In this document: positions 3,047-14,007 of the stretch, in pieces
Layout of the letters: every line of letters begins with the position of its first letter
How positions within the stretch are numbered: position 1 is the first letter of the stretch
IMG/VR virus record: IMGVR_UViG_3300028453_000018
Location: 1-14,007 of that record
DNA from: a virus
Lineage: Duplodnaviria > Heunggongvirae > Uroviricota > Caudoviricetes
Reading direction: 5' to 3' (one strand)
Length of the DNA: 14,007 bases
Program-made: the position numbers and the translations under genes
Notes under the pieces: model-generated
The model's input: the letters and a program-made list of their open reading frames with translations, nothing else
Databases searched by the model: none
What the model was told of the DNA's origin: nothing

Positions 3047-3064
3047 TGTATCAGCACTGATACA
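3047..3064 (+). promoter_or_regulatory. Candidate Ogr/Delta-type late-promoter activator site (TGT-N12-ACA) upstream of V
   Basis: TGTATCAGCACTGATACA: TGT at 3047-3049, a 12-nt spacer, ACA at 3062-3064, and the whole 18-mer is a near-perfect palindrome. It lies in the 68-bp S-V spacer, where P2 has promoter PV. Confidence 0.55.
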
Positions 3065-4045: not shown

Positions 4046-4940
4046 CCTTTCGCAGTTGCCTGCGCCGCAGATTGTCGATGTGCCGGACTTTGAGACGTTG
4101 CTTGCCGAACGCAAGGCCGAATTTGTTGCGCTTCATCCGAAAGATGAGCAGGAAGCAGTGATCCGCACGCTGGAACTGGAATCTGAACCCGTCACCAAAT
4201 TGCTTCAGGAGAACGCTTATCGTGAGTTGCTTCTGCGCCAGCGCATTAACGAAGCCGCGCAGGCGGTGATGGTGGCTTACGCGATGGGCGGCGATCTTGA
4301 CCAGCTCGCTGCTAACTACAACGTGAAACGCCTGACGGTGACACCTGCTGATGATGACGCTGTACCGCCCGTTGCGGCTGTGATGGAAAGTGATGAAGCG
4401 TTACGCCTGCGTGTGCCTGCAGCCTTTGAAGGGCTTTCTGTTGCGGGGCCAACTGCCGCTTATGAGTTTCATGCACGAAGCGCCGACGGTCGGGTGGCGG
4501 ATGCCAGTGCAACCAGTCCGGCACCTGCAGAGGTGGTGCTGACTGTCCTGAGCCGCGAAGGCGATGGAACAGCAGAAAAAGACCTGCTGGACGTGGTGGA
4601 AAAGGCTCTGAACAGTGAGAACGTCCGCCCGGTGGCTGACCGTCTGACGGTTCGCAGCGCAGAAATCATCCCGTACCGCGTGGAAGCTACCATTTTTCTC
4701 TATCCGGGACCGGAAGCAGAGCCGGTAATGGCAGCGGCAAAAGCCAGCCTGCAGAAGTACATCGCCAGTCAGACGCGGCTTGGTCGGGATATTCGCCGTA
4801 GCGCCATCTTTGCCGCCCTGCATGTTGAGGGGGTGCAGCGTGTGGAACTGGCTTCGCCGCTGGCGGATGTGGTCCTGAACAAAACGCAGGCGGCATCATG
4901 TACGCAGTGGAGCGTAACCAACGGAGGAACGGATGAATAG
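4032..4940 (+). CDS. J: Baseplate protein J (P2 gpJ-like)
   Basis: The ORF is open from 3993, but the ATG at 4032 is preceded by AGGAGCAGAG and gives MAVIDLSQLPAP..., matching the conserved gpJ N-terminus as I recall it; about 302 aa. Confidence 0.9.
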   Translation: MAVIDLSQLPAPQIVDVPDFETLLAERKAEFVALHPKDEQEAVIRTLELESEPVTKLLQENAYRELLLRQRINEAAQAVMVAYAMGGDLDQLAANYNVKRLTVTPADDDAVPPVAAVMESDEALRLRVPAAFEGLSVAGPTAAYEFHARSADGRVADASATSPAPAEVVLTVLSREGDGTAEKDLLDVVEKALNSENVRPVADRLTVRSAEIIPYRVEATIFLYPGPEAEPVMAAAKASLQKYIASQTRLGRDIRRSAIFAALHVEGVQRVELASPLADVVLNKTQAASCTQWSVTNGGTDE

Positions 4941-5538
4941 TCTGCTGCCACCGGGTTCAACACCACTGGAGCGCCGATTGGCGCATACGTGCAGCGGGAT
5001 TTCTGATCTGAAGGTGCCGCTGCGTGACTTGTGGAATCCGGCTACCTGTCCGGTCAGCTTCCTGCCTTATCTCGCCTGGGCGTTCTCTGTGGATCGCTGG
5101 GACGAGGGCTGGACAGAAAGCGTCAAACGCCAGGTGGTGAAGGATGCTTTTTATATTCATCAGCATAAAGGGACCACCAGTGCCGTGCGGCGGGTGGTGG
5201 AGCCGTTCGGCTTTCTGATCCGCATTATTGAGTGGTGGCAGACCGGAGAAACACCAGGCACGTTTCGCCTGGATATCGGCGTGCAGGACCAGGGCATCAC
5301 TGAAGATACCTATCTGGAACTTGAGCGGCTGATAAGCGATGCCAAACCATGTAGCCGTCACATGATCGGCATGTCCATCAATCTGCAAACCAGTGGCCCG
5401 CACTGGGTAGGGGCCGCCAGCTATCTTGGCGAAGAAATCACGATCTATCCGTATATCAACGAAACAATTATTTCCGGTGGCACCGCGCATGAAGGCGGGG
5501 CGGTCCATGTTATTGACACAATGAGAGTGAATCCATGA
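4933..5538 (+). CDS. I: Baseplate / tail protein I (P2 gpI-like)
   Basis: 201 aa; overlaps the J stop; position between J and H. Confidence 0.85.
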   Translation: MNSLLPPGSTPLERRLAHTCSGISDLKVPLRDLWNPATCPVSFLPYLAWAFSVDRWDEGWTESVKRQVVKDAFYIHQHKGTTSAVRRVVEPFGFLIRIIEWWQTGETPGTFRLDIGVQDQGITEDTYLELERLISDAKPCSRHMIGMSINLQTSGPHWVGAASYLGEEITIYPYINETIISGGTAHEGGAVHVIDTMRVNP

Positions 5539-7058
5539 GCACAAAATTTTATACCCTGCTGACGGATATTGGTGCGGCGAAACTTGCCAGCGCCGCCGCG
5601 CTCGGTGTGCCGCTAAAAATTACCCATATGGCGGTGGGCGATGGCGGCGGAGTATTGCCAACGCCGGACGCAAAGCAGACGGCACTGGTAAATGAGAAAC
5701 GCCGGGCTGCGCTGAATATGCTTTATATCGACCCGCAGAACAGCAGCCAGATTATTGCTGAACAGGTGATCCCTGAAAACGAGGGCGGTTGGTGGATACG
5801 TGAAGTGGGCCTGTTTGATGAGTCCGGGGCATTGATTGCCGTGGGCAACTGCCCGGAAAGCTATAAGCCGCAACTGGCTGAAGGCAGCGGGCGCACCCAG
5901 ACCGTGCGCATGGTGCTGATTACCAGCAGTACGGACAATATCACCCTGAAAATCGATCCTGCTGTAGTGCTGGCAACCCGCAAGTATGTGGATGACAAGG
6001 CACTGGAGCTGAAGGTGTACGTGGATGACCTGATGGCAAAACATCTTGCCGCACTGGACCCGCATTCACAGTATGCACCCAAAGAAAGTCCAACGTTTAC
6101 CGGAACCCCCAAAGCGCCAACGCCAGCGGCGGGGAATAATACCACGCAGCTTGCGACCACCGCGTTTGTTCAGGCGGCACTCACGGCCCTTATTAATGGT
6201 GCGCCAGCCACGCTGGACACGCTGAAAGAAATAGCCGCAGCCATTAACAATGATCCGAATTTCAGTACCACCATTAACAATGCGCTGGCACAAAAAGCGC
6301 CGCTGTCGAGTCCGGCACTCACCGGAACGCCAACAGCACCTACTGCGGCACAGTCGGTCAACAATACACAGATTGCCACTACAGCTTTTGTGAAATCAGC
6401 GATTGCAGCAATGGTGGGTTCTGCACCCGCGGCACTGGATACACTGAACGAACTGGCGGCGGCACTGGGGAATGATCCGAACTTTGCCACGACAATGCTT
6501 AATGCGCTGGCAGGTAAACAACCGCTGGACAATACGCTTACCAATTTGAGTGGAAAGGATGTAGCTGGTCTTCTCGCATACCTTGGTTTGGGAGAAGGTG
6601 CTCCAGCTATTGGCGTTCCGTTCTTCTGGCCGTCCGCTGCAATGCCAAATACTGTAATCGACAGCTGGTCCAGTATGGTGTTTTTGAAGTTCAACGGGGC
6701 GAAATTTTCTGCCACTGATTACCCTGTGCTGGCGAAAGTGTTTCCTGCGCTGGTATTACCTGAAGCCCGCGGTGATTTCATTCGTATCTGGGATGACGGG
6801 CGAGGTGTAGACGGTGGTCGCACGTTGTTAAGCGCACAGGACTTTGCTCAGCAGCGTATAACAGGGGATTTCATGGGGGGAGCTATGGGTAGCTCTGGCT
6901 CAATAAAAGCGGGTGCACTTGTTAATTCTTACACCAATTACGGTGCTGGATCTCAGGATTTGCAGTATTTCTCTATTGATAGTGCCATTGAAACGAAAAC
7001 TGCAAGTGAAACACGTCCTCGTAATATCGCGTTTAACTTTCTGGTGAGGGCTAAATAA
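5535..7058 (+). CDS. H: Tail fiber protein H (P2 gpH-like), with a conserved N-terminal baseplate-attachment region, internal tandem repeats and a C-terminal tail-collar-type domain
   Basis: 507 aa. The N-terminus (MSTKFYTLLTDIGAAKLA...MAVGDGGG...) matches the conserved gpH N-terminus as I recall it. Two roughly 70-aa repeat units occur (TGTPxAPTxA...NNTQxATTAFV...LDTLxExAAAxxNDPNF...). The C-terminus carries a collar-like motif (DYPVLAKVF...LPEARGDFIRIWDDGRGVDGGR). Confidence 0.9.
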   Translation: MSTKFYTLLTDIGAAKLASAAALGVPLKITHMAVGDGGGVLPTPDAKQTALVNEKRRAALNMLYIDPQNSSQIIAEQVIPENEGGWWIREVGLFDESGALIAVGNCPESYKPQLAEGSGRTQTVRMVLITSSTDNITLKIDPAVVLATRKYVDDKALELKVYVDDLMAKHLAALDPHSQYAPKESPTFTGTPKAPTPAAGNNTTQLATTAFVQAALTALINGAPATLDTLKEIAAAINNDPNFSTTINNALAQKAPLSSPALTGTPTAPTAAQSVNNTQIATTAFVKSAIAAMVGSAPAALDTLNELAAALGNDPNFATTMLNALAGKQPLDNTLTNLSGKDVAGLLAYLGLGEGAPAIGVPFFWPSAAMPNTVIDSWSSMVFLKFNGAKFSATDYPVLAKVFPALVLPEARGDFIRIWDDGRGVDGGRTLLSAQDFAQQRITGDFMGGAMGSSGSIKAGALVNSYTNYGAGSQDLQYFSIDSAIETKTASETRPRNIAFNFLVRAK

Positions 7059-7651
7059 TGAAACCTGTTTTTGATGAAAATGGGCTGGCTACAGTGCCGG
7101 GCGATATGCGTTGTTTTTATTATGATGCTGAAACATCTGAGTATACGGGTTGGTCTGATGAATATATTAATACTGGCGTAAGTATGCCCGCCTGTTCCAC
7201 TGGTATTGACCCTGGCGAAAACATTCCGGGAAAAGTGGCTGTATTTACAGGTAAGGGATGGAGCCATGAAGAGGACCATCGCAATGAGACTGTTTACTCA
7301 ATCGAAAATGGCGCAACTGTTACAGTGGATTATATCGGTGCCATCAAAAACGGTTATGTCACGCTTTCACCGTTAACGCCATACGATAAATGGGATGGTG
7401 AGAAATGGGTGACGGATACTGAAATACAACATCGCGCCGCAGTAGAAGCGGCAGAAACACAGCGTCGGTCACTGATTGATACTGCAATGGCTTCCGTTAG
7501 TTTGGTTCAACTGAAATTACGGGTCGGAAGAAAATTAACTGATGCAGAAACAGTAAAACTTAATGCTGTTCTTGACTACATTGACGCAGTGACGGCAACA
7601 GATTTCAGCACAGCCCCTGATATTAACTGGCCCAAACTACCAGAATTTTAA
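7058..7651 (+). CDS. G: Tail fiber assembly chaperone G (P2 gpG / Tfa-like)
   Basis: 197 aa; start overlaps the H stop (TAATG); position directly after H; lower GC than the surrounding genes, as is typical of the host-range module. Confidence 0.8.
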   Translation: MKPVFDENGLATVPGDMRCFYYDAETSEYTGWSDEYINTGVSMPACSTGIDPGENIPGKVAVFTGKGWSHEEDHRNETVYSIENGATVTVDYIGAIKNGYVTLSPLTPYDKWDGEKWVTDTEIQHRAAVEAAETQRRSLIDTAMASVSLVQLKLRVGRKLTDAETVKLNAVLDYIDAVTATDFSTAPDINWPKLPEF

Positions 7652-7658
7652 ATTCCTG

Positions 7659-7681
7659 CCCCGCGCCTGCGGGGATTTTTT
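7659..7681 (+). terminator. Rho-independent terminator after G
   Basis: GC stem CCCCGC (7659-7664) / GCGGGG (7669-7674) with a 4-nt loop, followed by TTTTTT (7676-7681), 8 nt after the G stop codon. Confidence 0.65.
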
Positions 7682-7692
7682 CACCCCGTCGT

Positions 7693-7710
7693 TGTGCCAT
7701 TTTCCATACA
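7693..7710 (+). promoter_or_regulatory. Candidate Ogr/Delta-type late-promoter activator site (TGT-N12-ACA) upstream of FI
   Basis: TGTGCCATTTTCCATACA: TGT at 7693-7695, a 12-nt spacer, ACA at 7708-7710. Its centre is about 85 nt upstream of the FI ATG; the FI ATG has a GGAGAG SD. Confidence 0.5.
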
Positions 7711-7785
7711 AACCCCATCGCGTGCACCCTGCGTGTATCAACCAGAACATAGACAGACCCCCTCTACAACCGGAGAGACTGCCTT

Positions 7786-8958
7786 ATGGCTCAGGATTAC
7801 CACCACGGGGTGCGCGTTGTTGAAGTCAACGAAGGCACCCGATCCATTACCACGGTGAGCACCGCCATCGTGGGCATGGTCTGCACGGGCGATGATGCCG
7901 ATGCAAAAATGTTTCCTCTTAATAAACCCGTGCTGATCACTGATGTACTGACCGCCAGCGGTAAAGCGGGTGAGTCCGGCACGCTGGCCCGTTCGCTGGA
8001 TGCCATCGCTGACCAGGCAAAACCCGTGACCGTTGTTGTGCGTGTGCCGCAGGGTGAAACGGAAGAAGAAACCACGACTAATATCATCGGCGCAGTGACC
8101 GCTGAAGGTAAAAAAACAGGTATGAAAGCCCTGTTATCTGCCCAGACACAGCTCGGCGTTAAACCGCGCATTCTCGGCGTGCCAGGTCACGATAACAAAG
8201 CCGTTGCGACTGAGTTGCTGAGCGTGGCGCAAAGCCTGCGTGGGTTTGCTTACCTGTCAGCGTATGGCTGCAAGACGGTACAGGAGGCGATCACTTACCG
8301 TGAAAACTTCAGCCAGCGCGAAGGGATGCTGATCTGGCCTGACTTTACTGGCTGGGACACGGTGCTGAATGCCGAAGCAACGGCATATGCCACCGCCCGT
8401 GCGCTCGGTCTGCGCGCCAAAATTGATGAGCAGACGGGGTGGCACAAGAGCCTGTCCAACGTAGGTGTGAACGGTGTCACCGGAATTTCTGCTGATGTGT
8501 TCTGGGATTTGCAGGACCCGGCAACCGATGCAGGTCTGCTGAACCAGAACGACGTCACCACACTTGTGCGTAAAGACGGCTTCCGCTTCTGGGGTTCCCG
8601 CTGCCTGAGTGATGACCCGCTCTTTGCCTTCGAAAACTACACCCGCACGGCGCAGGTGCTGATGGACACGATGGCAGAAGCACACATGTGGGCGGTGGAT
8701 AAACCTCTTAACCCGTCGCTGGCGCGCGACATTATCGAAGGTATCCGCGCCAAAATGCGCAGCCTGGTCAGTCAGGGGTATCTCATTGGTGGTGATTGCT
8801 GGCTGGACGAGTCGGTGAACGACAAAGACACGCTGAAAGCCGGAAAACTCACCATCGACTACGACTACACGCCAGTGCCGCCACTTGAAAACCTGATGCT
8901 GCGTCAGCGCATCACCGATCAGTACCTGGTGAATTTCGCCAGCCAGGTCAGCGCGTAA
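7786..8958 (+). CDS. FI: Contractile tail sheath protein FI
   Basis: 390 aa (P2 FI is about 396 aa); follows a terminator, promoter motif and SD; position before the tube gene. Confidence 0.95.
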
Positions 8959-8967
8959 GGGGACAAC

Positions 8968-9483
8968 ATGGCTTTACCACGCAAATTAAAACACCTGAAC
9001 CTGTTTAACGACGGGAACAACTGGCAGGGGATCGTTGAATCGCTGACGCTGCCGAAATTCACCCGCAAATATGAGAAATATCGCGGCGGCGGAATGCCGG
9101 GTGCAGTGGATGTGGATCTGGGGCTTGATGACAGTGCGCTGGACACAGAATTTTCCATTGGTGGTACTGAACTGCTGCTGTTTAAGCAGATGGGCAAAGC
9201 CACTGTGGATGGCATCCAGCTGCGCTTTACCGGCTCTATCCAGCGTGACGATACCGGGGAAGTGCAGGCCGTGGAGCTTGTGGTGCGTGGTCGTCACAAA
9301 GAAGTGGATTCCGGCGAGTGGAAGACGGGCGAAAGTAACACCACCAAAGTGACCAGTACCAACAGCTACGCGAAGCTGACCATCAATGGTGAGGTGCTCT
9401 ATGAAGTGGACCTTATCAACATGGTGGAAATTGTGGACGGAGTGGACCTGATGGAAGCGCACCGCAACGCCCTTGGCCTCTGA
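8968..9483 (+). CDS. FII: Tail tube protein FII
   Basis: 171 aa (P2 FII is about 172 aa), 9 nt after the sheath stop, with SD GGGGACAAC. Confidence 0.95.
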   Translation: MALPRKLKHLNLFNDGNNWQGIVESLTLPKFTRKYEKYRGGGMPGAVDVDLGLDDSALDTEFSIGGTELLLFKQMGKATVDGIQLRFTGSIQRDDTGEVQAVELVVRGRHKEVDSGEWKTGESNTTKVTSTNSYAKLTINGEVLYEVDLINMVEIVDGVDLMEAHRNALGL

Positions 9484-9537
9484 AGTATCTGAACGGCGCG
9501 GGATTCCGCGCCAGAACCCAATTTACAGGACAACAAA

Positions 9538-9840
9538 ATGAGCGATAAGCAGACTGAAAAGACCATTCAACTGGATACCCCCATCATGCGCGGTAAAACA
9601 GAAATTACCGAAATTGTGTTGCGTAAACCGCAGTCCGGTGCGCTGCGTGGCACACGCCTGCAGGCCATTATGGATATGGATGTGAACGCGATGATGACTG
9701 TGATCCCCCGCATCTCCAGTCCGGCACTGACTGCACAGGAAATCGCAGAGATGGACCCGGCAGATCTCACTGCCATGTCGGTTGAGGTTGTCACTTTTTT
9801 GTTGAAGAAGTCGGTGCTTGCCGGTTTACCGACAGCCTGA
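9538..9840 (+). CDS. E: Tail assembly chaperone E
   Basis: 100-aa ORF between the tube and tape measure genes; it contains the slippery T6G heptamer at 9795-9801 near its 3' end. Confidence 0.85.
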   Translation: MSDKQTEKTIQLDTPIMRGKTEITEIVLRKPQSGALRGTRLQAIMDMDVNAMMTVIPRISSPALTAQEIAEMDPADLTAMSVEVVTFLLKKSVLAGLPTA

Positions 9841-9974
9841 CGGTTGACGATCTGGTGGCAGATATCGCCACCATTTTTCACTGGCCGCCATCCGTTACTG
9901 ACGTTATGCCGCTGACCGAAGTGCTGGAATGGCGGTATAAAGCGATTCAGAGAAGCGGGGCCAACGATGAGTGA
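9538..9974 (+). CDS. E': Tail assembly chaperone E' (E+E' fusion made by a programmed -1 ribosomal frameshift at 9795-9801)
   Basis: The slippery sequence T TTT TTG lies in the E zero frame at 9795-9801. The -1 frame is open from 9801 for 57 codons (VEEVGACRFTDSLTVDDLVADIATIFHWPPSVTDVMPLTEVLEWRYKAIQRSGANDE) and ends at TGA 9972-9974, overlapping the T start codon at 9967. The predicted product is about 145 aa (P2 E+E' is about 142 aa). Confidence 0.7.
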
Positions 9975-12726
9975 TAACAACCTGCGGCTGCAGGTCATTC
10001 TTAATGCGGTTGACAAACTCACCCGCCCATTCCGTGCTGCACAGGCCAGTTCGAAAGAGCTGGCTGGCGCAATCAGAAACTCCCGTGACGCATTAAAGCA
10101 ACTCAATCAGGCGGGTAACAGCCTGGAAAAATTTCGCAAGCTGCAGGCCGATAACAAGAAGTTAGGCGACAGGCTGAACTATGCCAGACAGAAGGCTAAT
10201 TTGCTTAGCTCTGAGCTGGAGGCGATGGAACAACCATCACAACGGCACCTTGTGGCTTTAGGTCGGCAAACGCTGGCAGTCCAACGCCTGGAAGAACAAC
10301 AAAAATATTTGCAGAAGCAAACGGCGCTTGTGCGTGCAGAACTGTACCGGGCGGGAATTTCTGCGAAAGATGATGCGGGAGCAACTGCCCGTTTAGCCCG
10401 TGAAACATCACGTTATAACCAGGAATTGTCGAAACAGGAGGCGCGGCTGAAGCGACTGGGTGAAGCTCAGCGCAGGATGAATGCGGCGCGTGCCAGTTAT
10501 GCCCGTTCGCTGGAGGTGCGCGATCGTATTGCAGGTGCCGGAGCCACTACCACGGCTGCAGGTCTGGCAATGGGGACGCCAGTGATGGCGGCAGTAAAAA
10601 GCTATACCAGCATGGAAGATGCCATGAAAGGTGTGGCAAAGCAGGTCAATGGTCTGCGTGACGATAATGGCAACCGCACTGCACGTTTTTATGAAATGCA
10701 GGATGCCATCAAGGCTGCCAGCGAACAGTTGCCGATGGAAAAAGGTGCGGTGGACTTCGCTGCACTGGTTGAAGGTGGTGCGCGCATGAACGTCGCAAAC
10801 CCTGACGACAGCTGGGAAGACCAGAAACGTGATCTGCTGGCCTTCGCCAGCACGGCGGCAAAGGCGGCAACAGCCTTTGAGCTGCCAGCGGATGAACTGT
10901 CAGAAAGTCTGGGAAAAATCGCCCAGCTCTACAAAATCCCTACCCGCAATATTGAACAGCTCGGTGATGCGCTGAACTATCTGGATGATAACGCCATGTC
11001 GAAAGGGGCAGACATCATTGATGTGATGCAACGCCTGGGCGGTGTGGCTGATCGTCTGGATTATCGTAAAGCGGCGGCGCTGGGTTCCACCTTCCTGACA
11101 CTGGGTGCTGCGCCGGAGGTTGCAGCCAGTGCAGCAAACGCGATGGTGCGTGAGTTGTCCATTGCCACCATGCAAAGCAAGAGTTTCTTTGAAGGGATGA
11201 ATCTGCTGAAACTCAATCCTGAAGTGATTGAAAAGCAGATGACGAAGGATGCGATGGGAACCATCCAGCGCGTGCTGGAGAAGGTGAACGCACTGCCGCA
11301 GGACAAGCGTCTGTCTGCCATGACCATGTTGTTTGGTAAAGAGTTTGGTGATGACGCGGCGAAACTGGCAAACAACCTGCCGGAACTGCAGCGCCAGCTA
11401 AAACTGACAGCGGGCAATGATGCGCTCGGTTCCATGCAGAAAGAATCCGACATCAACAAAGACTCACTTTCTGCTCAGTGGTTGCTGGTCAAAACCGGAG
11501 CGCAGAACACCTTCAGCAGCCTGGGTGAAACGCTGCGCCAGCCGCTGATGGATATTCTGTACACGGTGAAAAGCATCACGGGAGCGTTGCGCCGCTGGAT
11601 GGAAGCTAACCCGGAACTGACAGGCACACTGATGAAAGTAGCGGCTGTTGTGGCTGCGGTTACCGTAGGCCTCGGCACCTTAGCGGTGGCGCTGGCTGCA
11701 GTGCTGGGGCCGCTGGCAGTCATCCGTCTGGGATTCTCTGTGCTGGGTATCAAAACGTTACCTTCCGTTACGGCAGCAGTAACACGAACCAGCAGCGCGT
11801 TGTCCTGGTTAGCTGGCGCTCCACTGGCACTGCTGCGACGCGGGCTTGCTTCATCGGGCAACGCAGCGGGTTTACTTACTGCGCCGTTGTCGTCTTTGCG
11901 CCGCACGGCATCACTGACGGGGAATGTCCTGAAAACTGTAGCAGGTGTGCCGGTTGCACTGTTGCGGTCTGGATTATCCGGTTTACGTGCTGTTGCTGTG
12001 ATGTTTATGAATCCTCTGGCGGTACTGCGCGGTGGACTGTCTGCCGCAGGCGCGGTGCTGCGAGTACTGGCATCCGGTCCGCTGGCGATGCTGCGCGTTG
12101 CCCTGTATGCCATATCTGGTCTGTTAGGTGCTCTGCTCAGTCCGATAGGTCTTGTGGTTACTGCACTGGCGGGTGTGGCGCTGGTTGTCTGGAAATACTG
12201 GCAACCCATCACCGCATTTCTCGGTGGCGTGGTGGAAGGATTCAAAGCGTCGACAGGTCCCATCAGTGCTGCATTCGAACCACTTAAGCCTGTGTTTCAG
12301 TGGATTGGCGACAAAGTGCAGGCGTTGTGGGGTTGGTTTACTGATCTGCTGACGCCTGTTAAGTCGACCTCTGCTGAACTGCAGAGCGCAGCGGCAATGG
12401 GGCGACGATTCGGGGAGGCTCTGGCGGAGGGGCTGAATATGGTCATGCATCCGCTGGACTCCCTGAAATCCGGTGTTTCCTGGTTGCTGGATAAACTCGG
12501 CATTGTCAGTAAAGAAGCTGCAAAGGCGAAACTGCCGGAAAGCGTGACGCGTCAGCAACCTGCGACGGTGAATGCAGACGGTAAAGTGATGATGCCATCG
12601 GGTGGTTTTCCATCATGGGGATATGGCTTTGCGGGGATGTATGACAGCGGCGGCTATATCCCGCGCGGGCAGTTTGGCATCGTCGGTGAAAACGGGCCGG
12701 AAATTGTTAACGGCCGGCAAATGTGA
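9967..12726 (+). CDS. T: Tail tape measure protein T, N-terminal 919 codons, ending at an apparently premature in-frame TGA
   Basis: Long ORF with an alpha-helical, Q/A/R/E-rich N-terminal half and a hydrophobic repeat region (PLALLRRGL, PVALLRSGL, PLAVLRGGL, PLAMLRVAL), sitting between E' and U as in P2. The frame stops at 12724-12726, but the coding signal continues in the -1 frame. Confidence 0.85.
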   Translation: MSDNNLRLQVILNAVDKLTRPFRAAQASSKELAGAIRNSRDALKQLNQAGNSLEKFRKLQADNKKLGDRLNYARQKANLLSSELEAMEQPSQRHLVALGRQTLAVQRLEEQQKYLQKQTALVRAELYRAGISAKDDAGATARLARETSRYNQELSKQEARLKRLGEAQRRMNAARASYARSLEVRDRIAGAGATTTAAGLAMGTPVMAAVKSYTSMEDAMKGVAKQVNGLRDDNGNRTARFYEMQDAIKAASEQLPMEKGAVDFAALVEGGARMNVANPDDSWEDQKRDLLAFASTAAKAATAFELPADELSESLGKIAQLYKIPTRNIEQLGDALNYLDDNAMSKGADIIDVMQRLGGVADRLDYRKAAALGSTFLTLGAAPEVAASAANAMVRELSIATMQSKSFFEGMNLLKLNPEVIEKQMTKDAMGTIQRVLEKVNALPQDKRLSAMTMLFGKEFGDDAAKLANNLPELQRQLKLTAGNDALGSMQKESDINKDSLSAQWLLVKTGAQNTFSSLGETLRQPLMDILYTVKSITGALRRWMEANPELTGTLMKVAAVVAAVTVGLGTLAVALAAVLGPLAVIRLGFSVLGIKTLPSVTAAVTRTSSALSWLAGAPLALLRRGLASSGNAAGLLTAPLSSLRRTASLTGNVLKTVAGVPVALLRSGLSGLRAVAVMFMNPLAVLRGGLSAAGAVLRVLASGPLAMLRVALYAISGLLGALLSPIGLVVTALAGVALVVWKYWQPITAFLGGVVEGFKASTGPISAAFEPLKPVFQWIGDKVQALWGWFTDLLTPVKSTSAELQSAAAMGRRFGEALAEGLNMVMHPLDSLKSGVSWLLDKLGIVSKEAAKAKLPESVTRQQPATVNADGKVMMPSGGFPSWGYGFAGMYDSGGYIPRGQFGIVGENGPEIVNGRQM

Positions 12727-13043
12727 CCAGCCGGAGAAATACAGCTGCACTGGCTGCCGTTGTTGCCGGAATGATGGGCGTTGCTGCCGCGCCAGCAGAG
12801 CTTCCACCGTTGCACCCTTTGGCACTTCCCGCGAAAGGTGGAGAAGCGATGGTGAGTCGCGCAGCCACTGTGCCGCTCGTTCAACGGATTGAGGCACCGA
12901 CGCAGATCATCATTCAGACGCAGCCAGGACAAAGTGCGCAGGATATTGCGCGGGAGGTGGCACGCCAGCTTGATGAACGTGAACGCAGGCTGAAGGCAAA
13001 AGCCAGGAGTAACTACAGCGATCAGGGGGGATACGACGCATGA
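12711..13043 (+). CDS. T: Probable C-terminal segment of tape measure protein T in the -1 frame (frameshifted or pseudogenised 3' end)
   Basis: This frame is open from 12711, just after a TAA at 12708-12710, to TGA 13041-13043, and its stop overlaps the U start codon (ATGA at 13040-13043) in the way P2 junctions do. The T frame and this frame overlap only across 12711-12723. Confidence 0.6.
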   Translation, partial: RPANVTSRRNTAALAAVVAGMMGVAAAPAELPPLHPLALPAKGGEAMVSRAATVPLVQRIEAPTQIIIQTQPGQSAQDIAREVARQLDERERRLKAKARSNYSDQGGYDA

Positions 13044-13525: not shown

Positions 13526-14007
13526 ATTTCAGCTCTGAACTGCTTAACAAAGGCAACAAAACTCCCGCATTCAGCATCAGTATTGAGGGCAGGGATATCA
13601 CCACTGTGCTGGATAACCGCCTGATGAGTTTGACGCTGACGGATAACCGGGGCTTTGAAGCGGACCAGCTTGATCTGGAGTTGGATGACGCTGACGGAAA
13701 AATCGTGCTGCCGCGCCGTGGTGCGGTCATTACGCTGGCGCTGGGCTGGAAGGGGCAGCCGCTTTTCCCGAAAGGGGCATTCACAGTGGACGAGATTGAA
13801 CACACTGGCGCACCGGACCGCCTGACTATCCGGGCGCGAAGTGCTGATTTTCGGGAAACGCTGAATACCCGCCGTGAAAAATCGTGGCATAAGACCACCG
13901 TCGGGGAAGTGGTGAAGGAAATAGCCGCGCGGCACAAGCTGAAGATGGCACTGGGAAAAGACCTGCCGTCACTCTCATTAGTCTGGTGTATATGCTCCAC
14001 GGGCTTA
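13522..14007 (+). CDS. D: Tail protein D (late control gene D family), 5' portion only; continues beyond the window
   Basis: GTG at 13522 overlaps the U stop (GTGA). The frame is open to the window end (VNFSSELLNKGNKTPAFSISIEGRDITTVLDNRLMSLTLTDNRGFEADQLDLELDDADGK...), the position after U matches P2, and the N-terminal motif resembles the Phage_GPD family. Confidence 0.75.
   Translation, partial: MNFSSELLNKGNKTPAFSISIEGRDITTVLDNRLMSLTLTDNRGFEADQLDLELDDADGKIVLPRRGAVITLALGWKGQPLFPKGAFTVDEIEHTGAPDRLTIRARSADFRETLNTRREKSWHKTTVGEVVKEIAARHKLKMALGKDLPSLSLVWCICSTGL

Follow-up and report, generated by a model that had tools for sequence, protein, structure and literature searches.

Tail-fibre mosaicism is reportedly common to P2, Mu, P1, lambda and the T-even phages, an observation credited to Haggard-Ljungquist, Halling and Calendar in 1992 (J Bacteriol 174:1462). 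Phage P2 itself is close to the locus described here: as in the window (the whole 14,007-nt stretch of DNA that was analysed), its genes stand in the order I-H-G-terminator-FI, H begins with the N-terminal PF12571 domain, G belongs to the Tfa family PF02413, and the C-terminal part of H together with G is common to unrelated phages, whereas the N-terminal part follows the backbone. The two differ in tip allele, only the last 275 nt of the window's G matching P2-type phages (at ~82%), and in the nature of the junction within H, which in the window is an invertase crossover site; canonical P2 is not known to have such a site. The same 26-bp site family occupies the constant/variable fibre junction in the Din-family switches, namely Mu G/Gin, P1 C/Cin, e14 P/Pin and the invertible loci of P2-like prophages, and the e14 and P2-like segments invert in E. 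coli (PMC4272514). The cassette of these switches, like that of the window, consists of a variable tip plus tfa, and five relatives (L001, L002, L003, L006 and L008) hold near-identical cassettes within such a switch. Unlike them, the window has a single site and neither an invertase nor an opposed cassette, and thus represents a fixed derivative that cannot invert. A further point of comparison is Tfa of Mu (gpU; PDB 5YVQ), for which North et al. (2019, Nat Microbiol 4:1645; via PMC9608196) describe two domains, the N-terminal one variable and fibre-binding, the C-terminal one conserved and responsible for assembly.

With considerable confidence, we regard the locus as a host-range cassette of mosaic make-up within the tail operon of an E. 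coli prophage of the P2-like type (Peduoviridae), and to judge from their nucleotide matches, the tip of H and the first half of G are in all likelihood an import from unrelated E. coli prophages. Since the homology junctions fall at 6571-6596 and 7370-7419, the exchanged unit very probably comprises H residues ~355-507 and G residues 1 to ~105/120. All features retained here lie on the plus strand. Gene H (5535-7058), a listed open reading frame of 507 aa identified by Pfam, PHROG and existing annotation, encodes a P2 gpH-type tail fibre, as both its attachment domain and its position in the operon indicate. Pfam PF12571 (Phage_tail_fib) covers residues 1-150 (E 4.5e-65; 218.7 bits against a cut-off of 23, for a model of 150 positions), and PHROG 327 ('tail protein') is matched at E 1e-201. 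The gene stands in a P2-type tail operon, V-W-J-I-H-G followed by FI-FII-E-T-U-D, an order read from the Pfam assignments of the surrounding genes in L010, whose locus is 99.98% identical to the window, and supported by the annotation of 4LV2017. The exact H protein is annotated in databases as 'phage tail protein [Escherichia coli]'. Klebsiella was considered as a host, given that the best backbone matches in the phage database are Klebsiella prophages, but was rejected because existing annotation assigns the exact H and G proteins to E. coli.

Backbone and tip have discordant nearest relatives. Over 92-93% of the window, the backbone is 95-97% identical to P2-like Klebsiella and E. coli prophages, with the tip plus G as the sole gap in the match, and the 5' part of H, the baseplate genes and the sheath gene all match these prophages at 95-97%. 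The constant part of H (5535-6570), which comprises the baseplate-attachment domain and a shaft with a ~76-aa tandem duplication, belongs to this resident backbone (95-97% identity to Klebsiella phages KP12 and 4LV2017 and to E. coli P2-like prophages). Its homology to P2-like relatives stops at 6596-6599, and same-backbone relatives resume their match from 7370. The patch from ~6572/6585 to ~7417 instead shows 97-100% identity to L007, L008 and L009, whose backbones are unrelated, and its carriers are Mu/SfV-like and e14/pinE-like E. coli prophages that have nothing else in common with the window. The initial annotation had proposed that the H tip and its chaperone are an exchanged module from a different phage lineage, and this discordance, together with the sharpness of the breakpoints, bears it out: the relatives of the tip and of the N-terminal part of G (Mu/SfV-like and e14/pinE-like) are not those of the H N-terminus (P2-like). 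Part of the tip also matches the lambdoid phage mEp213 from the same junction, from which the myovirus 606R2 likewise carries the tip; the N-terminal parts of the fibres are unrelated between lineages, and all join at LGLGEG. Lineages in which the tip is joined at the crossover site include, besides mEp213, the invertase-less P2-like 4LV2017 and MEI005.

The left junction of the cassette is an orphan 26-bp crossover site of the Din-family (pix/gix-type) invertases at 6571-6596, TTCTCGCATACC-TT-GGTTTGGGAGAA, which codes for LLAYLGLGE within H. Direct comparison with Mu and e14 showed that 23/26 of its positions agree with the left P-segment site of e14 and that it has the ACC-NN-GGTTT centre in common with Mu gix. 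L001 and L003 have an identical sequence as the left inverted repeat of their invertible fibre segments, and in L006 the site is an inverted-repeat arm of such a segment. An adjacent serine invertase gene (gin/cin/pin) is present in L001, L002 and L003, and an opposed alternative tip+tfa pair is present in these three as well as in L006 and L008; between G and the sheath gene, the relatives hold tfa', an inverted alternative tip and a recombinase. The window contains one exact copy of the site, and a search across its 14 kb at up to 3 mismatches yielded no partner; nor did the window yield a suitable or long pair of inverted repeats flanking a segment, an invertase ORF (the gap from G to the sheath gene is only 134 nt), an inverted tfa' or an opposed alternative tip+tfa pair. 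With no invertase, second site or alternative tip in the window, the fibre is therefore fixed in one form. A look for invertase or crossover sites in homologues had been suggested by the initial annotation as a check, and homologues do possess an invertible segment, while the window retains a single orphan site exactly at the junction.

The imported tip begins with a proximal part (6597-6833; H residues 355-433), which is 98-100% identical to L007-L009 and 92-100% identical to L001, L002 and L006, and which we describe as a divergent collar-like domain containing LPEARGDFIRIWDDGRGVDGGR. The initial annotation had singled out this motif, which is present at H 411-432 with the amendment that its leading 'F' is L (ALVLPE); the accompanying description, 'tail-collar-like', holds at the level of profiles and not for the window sequence. 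Searched as a profile, the tip family finds the tip of T4 gp37 (2XGF; E 3.5e-15) and the short tail fibre of phiTE (9CUY; E 6.9e-17), with homology that extends over the collar-like domain, whereas Pfam Collar (PF07484), with a gathering threshold of 24 bits, reaches 14.9 bits on the window tip (E 0.027; model positions 14-57 only) and 16.8 bits on the allele-B tip of L001, below threshold in both. The tip of L013, homologous to that of the window at 48% identity, scores 53.8 bits in the same alignment columns, and a 9-residue insertion in the collar-like domain of the window (VIDSWSSMV) breaks the Pfam match. Homology to such collar-bearing tips suggests membership of the Collar family at the profile level only. 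The H tip further resembles those of T4 gp37 and phiTE in its NIAFN(F/Y)(L/I)VR strand, and differs from them in that its variable region is far shorter (~61 residues) and that a reading of the tip sequence brought no HxH iron-binding needle repeats to notice.

The collar-like domain is followed by a hypervariable block of 61 codons (6834-7016; H residues 434-494), which is probably the distal, receptor-contacting part of the fibre. It occurs as alternative alleles, at least five of them in alignment A1. The window carries allele 'A'; allele 'B', of similar length, is found in L001, L002, L005 and L006, where allele A has no DNA match. Allele A is rare (6/5426 complete E. coli genomes), and a search of the phage collection with the DNA of this block matched no phage record. 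H ends with a conserved C-terminal strand (7017-7055), ETRPRNIAFNFLVRAK, recognized from the alignment of tip alleles, across all of which it is nearly invariant, and which aligns with NIAFNYIVRL at the C-terminus of T4 gp37. An AlphaFold2 monomer model of H 346-507, built from a 16-sequence alignment, was unusable (mean pLDDT 37.4, pTM 0.19); the structural roles proposed here for the tip and for G are read from profile homology. The collar-like domain (H 355-433) and the last 13 residues of H may thus form a constant scaffold, with the 61-residue block (H 434-494) making contact with the receptor, which by analogy with P2, Mu and P1 would most likely be the LPS core. By homology, the tip module would then be the determinant of receptor specificity.

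Gene G lies directly downstream of the fibre gene, its start codon overlapping the H stop at 7058, and its product is a tail fibre assembly protein of the Tfa/Caudo_TAP family (aa 77-196 score 90.6 bits with Pfam PF02413, for which the cut-off is 22.1; PHROG 105 'tail fiber assembly', E 4e-79). The N-terminal domain (7058-7369; aa 1-104), imported with the tip and predicted to bind the fibre, is 95-100% identical to the tfa genes of L001, L002 and L006-L009, unrelated to those of the same-backbone relatives L003, L004 and L013, and common only to carriers of the same tip scaffold; a Pfam search with the N-terminal half of G alone gave no match. The conserved C-terminal domain (7370-7651; aa 105-197) is the allele of the resident backbone: it is 97.2% identical to that of E. 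coli MEI005 (L013), contiguously through the terminator and the sheath, tube and tape-measure genes (7370-10400), and ~82% identical to the tfa of P2, HK97 and Klebsiella phages. From PLTPYDKWDG onward, this domain is common to G, L003, P2, HK97 and others. The right-hand crossover zone (7370-7419; ...PLTPYDKWDGEKWV...) lies at the start of the C-terminal domain, where both parental types are at least 95% identical to the window; identity to L013 climbs from 45% to 98-100% at ~7380, and identity to L008 drops to 62-85% past ~7420. Only the N-terminal ~105-120 residues of G thus appear to have travelled with the tip, so that the unit which the initial annotation took to be the H tip plus G holds for the tip and for this part of the chaperone, the 3' third of G being resident.

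This arrangement, a tip-dependent N-domain followed by a conserved C-domain, with the right joint at 7370-7419, agrees with the two-domain Tfa model as set out in PMC9608196. As described there for Mu Tfa, the variable N-domain of G goes with the tip and the C-domain is conserved across phages; in the window the latter is that of the recipient, and the joint falls at the domain boundary. Unlike Mu Tfa, G has no detectable sequence match to any solved chain, a search of solved structures returning nothing at E <= 1. If the model extends to G, its N-domain would bind the H trimer in its C-terminal region, and assembly of that trimer would be driven by the conserved C-domain of G.

In the account that we favor, the patch 6597 to ~7417 would have been drawn from a pool of cassettes residing in Mu/SfV-like and e14/pinE-like E. 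coli prophages, a pool which in many relatives lies in an invertible segment that also holds an invertase gene and, in opposed orientation, a second tip+tfa pair. Abundance and composition are what suggest this direction of transfer, from pool to window. The recombination joints would be sequences that very different phages have in common and that flank the exchangeable unit on both sides, with the 26-bp crossover site within H (6571-6596) on the left, and the DNA of the conserved Tfa C-terminal domain, from 7370, on the right. As a DNA invertase and short-homology recombination would leave the same sequence, the left joint is not attributable to one over the other.

A single-crossover route is conceivable, though in our estimation unlikely. 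An invertase-bearing P2-like ancestor would already have had allele A downstream of its own crossover site, and a crossover in the Tfa C-domain DNA with an invertase-less, MEI005-like relative would have removed tfa', the alternative tip and the invertase; the left joint would then be old, and the right joint alone recent. Such a route needs just ordinary homologous recombination between related phages, and all DNA to the right of 7370 does follow an invertase-less relative without a break. There are also P2-like prophages in which an invertase accompanies the same constant part of H, crossover site and proximal tip, L001 being 96.8% identical to the window across 4900-6833, with L002 and L003 similar. 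However, no P2-like phage with both an invertase and allele A was found: L001 and L002 hold allele B, and in 6/6 complete E. coli genomes allele A sits in Mu/SfV-like or e14-like elements. Moreover, clustering at 90% identity groups the exact H protein only with proteins of 507 aa, and the two loci that show sequence 3' of H (L010 and L012) have no invertase after G.

A more speculative proposal, which we hold to be improbable, is that the orphan site still functions and is acted on in trans by Pin/Gin-type invertases that co-resident prophages provide. Invertases from e14, Mu-like or other P2-like elements might recombine the orphan site with the sites of other elements, such that invertase-less phages would capture tips, the left joint arising by site-specific exchange and the right one by homologous exchange within the conserved Tfa domain. 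If true, this would account for the fact that every fibre lineage examined joins its tip exactly at the crossover site.

Base composition also sets the region apart, within limits (~6834 to ~7797) that differ from those of homology (6597 to ~7417). GC3 is 0.54-0.75 in the backbone genes, 0.565 in the constant part of H, 0.524 in H as a whole, 0.34 in H codons 434-494 and 0.343 in G. Across the window, the low-GC3 segment with the best support is 6326-7797 (0.396, against 0.616 outside), and a three-state fit within H and G gives GC3 values of 0.64, 0.50 and 0.34 with breaks at ~6035 and ~6881. When amino acids were held fixed and codons resampled from backbone codon usage, the proximal tip (6597-6833) did not deviate significantly (observed 0.519, expected 0.605; z -1.6), whereas GC3 was low in the hypervariable block (6834-7016; 0.344 against 0.592, z -4.2), the N-terminal half of G (0.356 against 0.579, z -4.8) and its C-terminal half (0.333 against 0.613, z -6.0). 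From this test and the segment fits, marked AT-richness starts near 6834-6881 and runs through G. The initial annotation had placed an AT-rich tract from ~6540 to the G stop; the profile is indeed not uniform (log-likelihood ratio 39.3 for 6326-7797, against a maximum of 11.1 in 30 shuffles) and the low-GC tract is significant, but it starts later than was claimed. The end at 7651 is correctly the stop of G, and 6540 lies 31 nt before the crossover site. The repeat region, said to be GC-rich, is so only in part, since GC3 is 0.40-0.55 from H codon ~231 on.

Composition and descent are thus offset at both ends of the patch. The first 236 nt of the imported DNA are compositionally like the backbone, and the resident 3' third of G is the most AT-rich piece, though contiguous with the backbone. 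The tip and tfa of L013, which are other alleles of the same backbone lineage, are equally AT-rich (GC3 0.32-0.33), and the same cassette has a GC3 of 0.42-0.45 in every backbone, matching only the 606R2 and e14-like backbones (0.43-0.47). Because composition departs from the limits of the latest exchange, the GC dip reflects a long history of exchange in the tip/tfa region and not one event. That the dip might instead have arisen in place, through mutational bias, relaxed codon selection or amino-acid composition and without horizontal exchange, is very improbable. It does extend over resident-backbone DNA (7420-7651), is common to other tip/tfa alleles of the lineage, and is preceded by a gradual fall in GC3 already from ~6035; but ~830 nt are 97-100% identical to cassettes of otherwise dissimilar phages, the breakpoints at 6597 and 7370-7419 are sharp, the GC3 deficit remains with amino acids fixed, and the differences of G from other tfa alleles cluster past 7418 where an even spread would be expected. 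An active, phase-variable host-range switch like Mu G, P1 C or e14 P, to which the intact site, identical to functional-looking sites of relatives, and the full switch in close relatives might point, merits the least credence of all and is refuted as a cis-inversion by the missing second site and invertase, along with the missing inverted tfa', alternative tip and long flanking repeats and the shortness of the G-sheath gap.

The cassette is followed by elements of the P2-type operon. A Rho-independent terminator at 7659-7681 closes V-W-J-I-H-G; its hairpin, CCCCGC-GCCT-GCGGGG, has 6 G-C pairs in the stem and runs into ATTTTTT. Upstream of the sheath gene, a TGT-N12-ACA element at 7693-7710, found by pattern match, is probably the activator site of the P2-type late promoter P_F; a second copy lies upstream of gene V (3047-3064), both copies being intergenic, and the 5 occurrences of the pattern in the window are not above chance (3.9 expected). 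An Rfam search over 6300-7900 returned nothing at threshold. Minus-strand ORFs at 6170-6715 and 6953-7279 were dismissed as spurious, with no Pfam match. The tape-measure gene of the prophage appears to be frameshifted (at ~12722), and the fibre may therefore never reach an infectious particle.

The swap of a tail-fibre tip with its chaperone is textbook phage exchange, to which import of the H tip and the G N-domain in this prophage adds one more case and, as such, little. The locus nevertheless provides natural, base-level splice points for retargeting P2-type fibres and tailocins, after LGLGEG in H and before PLTPYDKWDG in G, and the near-identity of the Tfa N-domains that accompany alleles A and B suggests that the 61-residue block could be swapped alone. 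The widespread 'integrase' label on fibres with this tip is a misannotation, corrected here. The GC dip marks a long-term exchange zone, and not the limits of the latest transfer.

The tip of the tail fibre and its assembly chaperone very probably form a host-range cassette that has passed between phage lineages by exchange at two conserved joints and is now fixed in this prophage. The window covers the late genes, for lysis and tail, of a P2-like prophage, all of them on the + strand and in the order gpX, holin, lysozyme, LysA/B, R, S, V, W, J, I, H, G, FI, tube, E/E', T, U, D. The V-W-J-I-H-G operon ends with the fibre gene H (5535-7058, + strand, 507 aa) and the chaperone gene G, or tfa (7058-7651, + strand, 197 aa), 3' of which lie a terminator (7659-7681, + strand; six G-C pairs, then a T-run) and the sheath gene FI (7786-8958, + strand). 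Two intergenic TGT-N12-ACA elements, at 3047-3064 (5' of V) and 7693-7710 (5' of the sheath gene), occupy what we take to be the positions expected for the P2 late promoters P_V and P_F; the pattern occurs five times in the window, which is not above chance. A contig of assembly GCA_028611705.1 is 99.98% identical to the window. Proteins identical to H ('phage tail protein') and G ('tail fiber assembly protein') are already public; their annotated source is Escherichia coli, and Enterobacter roggenkampii and Salmonella contribute a few members of the clusters.

Sequence comparison proved sharper than composition for setting the limits of the module. P2-like prophages of Klebsiella pneumoniae (Kp48xx series, 4LV2017, KP12) are the phage records closest to the backbone, at 96% identity over 92-93% of the window, and the sole portion absent from these matches is the fibre tip plus G. 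Matches to H in dozens of P2-like phages stop at query position 1062-1064 (window ~6598), and in pairwise BLAST the backbone homology of three P2-like relatives (L003, L004 and L013) stops at 6596-6599. From 6572/6585 to 7644, matches come from E. coli prophage cassettes otherwise dissimilar to the window, namely those of Mu/SfV-like elements adjoining intS and tRNA-Arg, with a fibre of 254 aa (L007, L009), and that of an e14/606R2-like element, in a silent slot beside pinE (L008). Identity to these cassettes in a sliding comparison is 97-100% over 6585-~7417, then drops to 62-85%; over 7370-10400 an unbroken match of 97.2% identity, through the terminator and the genes for sheath, tube and tape measure, links the window to a P2-like prophage that lacks an invertase, that of E. 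coli MEI005 (L013). Both sets of breakpoints therefore delimit the latest imported patch to 6597-~7417, with the right crossover inside 7370-7419. At least 80% of the whole cassette was found in 282 genomes.

The left junction coincides with an invertase crossover site. The search for invertase or crossover sites in homologues, proposed in the initial annotation, was positive: between G and the sheath gene, relatives from E. coli and Klebsiella carry a further tfa and an alternative tip, both inverted, together with a gene for a recombinase/DNA invertase, and the inverted repeat TTCTCGCATACCTTGGTTTGGGAGAAG / CTTCTCCCAAACCAACGTTTAAGAAAA bounds the invertible segments. The window has a single exact copy at the left junction (about 6571-6597, zero mismatches); no second copy was found across the window at up to three mismatches, and its G-to-sheath gap is only 134 nt. 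With the inversion switch missing, the fibre has a single, fixed form. By direct comparison, 23 of the site's 26 positions agree with the left site of the e14 P segment, and its ACC-NN-GGTTT centre recurs in Mu gix; inversion in E. coli cultures has been demonstrated for the e14 P segment and for P2-like prophage segments (PMC4272514). The site translates to LLAYLGLGE, and in all fibres examined a separate, unrelated N-terminal part meets the shared tip at LGLGEG, a join seen in P2-like H, lambdoid mEp213 Stf, 606R2-type Stf and the Mu/SfV-like 254-aa fibre. RefSeq splits the H gene of E. coli WS0115A (L001 1036-2541) into two partial pseudogenes, while its translation is an uninterrupted 501-aa fibre; the call is probably an annotation artefact of a mosaic, invertible gene.

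At the right junction, Tfa residues 1-~104 are common solely to carriers of this tip scaffold, and the protein from PLTPYDKWDGEKWV onward is common to tfa genes with very different N-terminal halves, such as that of KP12; the DNA of this C-domain is ~82% identical in P2, HK97 and pro483. In the model of North et al. (2019), as recounted in a passage of PMC9608196, a non-conserved N-domain binds the fibre C-terminal region and a conserved C-domain drives oligomerisation. The right junction, as placed by alignment, falls at the Tfa domain boundary and matches this two-domain model. Alignment and model together therefore describe an exchanged unit of two parts that must fit each other.

The AT-rich host-range module previously proposed at 6540-7651 exists as a compositional tract. 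The best segment of low third-codon-position G+C (GC3), 6326-7797, stands at 0.396 versus 0.616 outside (log-likelihood ratio 39.3 versus a shuffle maximum of 11.1), and GC3 is 0.54-0.75 in backbone genes, 0.524 in H and 0.343 in G. An onset at 6540 was not borne out: in a resampling test that kept the protein sequence and drew codons at backbone frequencies, 6597-6833 was not significantly low (observed 0.519, expected 0.605, z -1.6), the corresponding z values being -4.2 for 6834-7016, -4.8 for the N-terminal half of G and -6.0 for its C-terminal half. A three-state fit placed a sharp fall at ~6881 and a milder step earlier, at ~6035. The 3' part of G is the most AT-rich piece, yet is contiguous with the resident backbone, and L013, from the same lineage, has another tip/tfa allele that is equally AT-rich (GC3 0.32-0.33), so the dip marks a zone of long-standing exchange and not the limits of the last event. 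In all backbones examined the cassette keeps a GC3 of ~0.42-0.45, compositionally foreign to P2-like, lambdoid and Mu/SfV-like backbones (0.6-0.65) and in line with 606R2/e14-like ones (0.43-0.47), which on composition are its most plausible long-term home; the closest match overall is the e14/606R2-like L008. The sole other mild dip within the window is a LysA-like lysis accessory gene at 1202-1651 (PF28015 in the near-identical assembly L010), whose GC of 0.50 and GC3 of 0.567 are below those of its neighbours.

The tip comprises a conserved proximal part (H 355-433), a hypervariable block of 61 codons (H 434-494, nt 6834-7016) and the conserved C-terminal strand of H, ETRPRNIAFNFLVRAK. The collar-like motif of the initial annotation is present as LPEARGDFIRIWDDGRGVDGGR, except that the initial F of the pattern is L in H. 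Against Pfam Collar the tip scores 14.9 bits, missing the threshold of 24 because of a 9-residue insertion; the homologous L013 tip scores 53.8 bits. A tip-family profile hits both the distal tip of T4 gp37 (2xgf; E 3.5e-15, gp37 C-terminal NIAFNYIVRL included) and the short tail fibre of phiTE (9cuy; E 6.9e-17), and an AlphaFold monomer model (pLDDT 37) gave no usable structure. By analogy with T4 gp37, reportedly the subject of Bartual and colleagues' 2010 work, the variable block would be the distal, receptor-contacting part of the tip. The alignment of homologues contains at least five alleles of this block; of 5426 complete E. coli genomes, 6 carry the window's own, allele A, and no phage record has it. 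Near-identical Tfa N-domains accompany allele A (the window, L007-L009) and allele B (L001, L002, L005, L006), so the chaperone probably touches the constant scaffold, and these pairings suggest that a single chaperone may serve several receptor-binding variants.

The H shaft contains a tandem ~76-aa duplication (~6099-6326 and ~6327-6554; H aa 189-264 and 265-340) of the pattern ...TGTPxAPT...NNTQxATTAFV...APAxLDTLxExAAAxxNDPNF..., which matches the fibre shafts of PDB 9d93 and 9k09; the copies are ~65% identical in DNA, the second being lower in GC3. Dozens of ~254-aa Mu/SfV-like fibres with this tip (e.g. L009 3495-4259; proteins including P0002, P0003, P0006 and P0009-P0017) are named 'integrase' at NCBI, in what looks like a propagated annotation error.

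Compared with Klebsiella phage 4LV2017, whose T is intact at 3078 nt, the tape-measure gene T of the window (9967-13043) has a 1-nt deletion near 12720-12726, yielding a 919-aa ORF that ends in ...IVNGRQM and a stop, plus a 106-aa ORF in a different frame; the independent assembly L010 has the identical stretch, deletion included. This prophage may be defective in its tail; a real deletion would rule out a normal tail and make fibre specificity moot for this copy. The last 42 nt of the window (13966-14007, inside gpD) are the reverse complement of the L010 sequence that follows there (16437-16481), reflecting either a small inversion or a contig-end assembly artefact.

In the proposed exchange at two joints, the left joint would have been made either by short-homology recombination or by an invertase at the site's central TT, and the conserved Tfa C-domain DNA would have provided the homologous anchor, here with the allele of the recipient lineage. 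A single crossover within that DNA, between an invertase-bearing P2-like parent carrying allele A and an invertase-less relative, is a possible but less likely route; no such parent was found. That the compositional dip arose in place is highly improbable, and an active inversion switch still more so, given that the window has no second crossover site and the switch components are absent; both were excluded. A 1992 study is said to have described this phenomenon for the H and G genes of P2. The invertible segments of Mu, P1 and e14 likewise represent the same phenomenon, and the window cassette fits the Tfa domain model of 2019. Non-mobilizable E. coli plasmids of ~92-99 kb, a size that suggests P1-like phage-plasmids, carry parts of the cassette too, from the last H codons through G; these occurrences widen the range of backbones that share the cassette. 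The window shows a new allele combination of a familiar kind.
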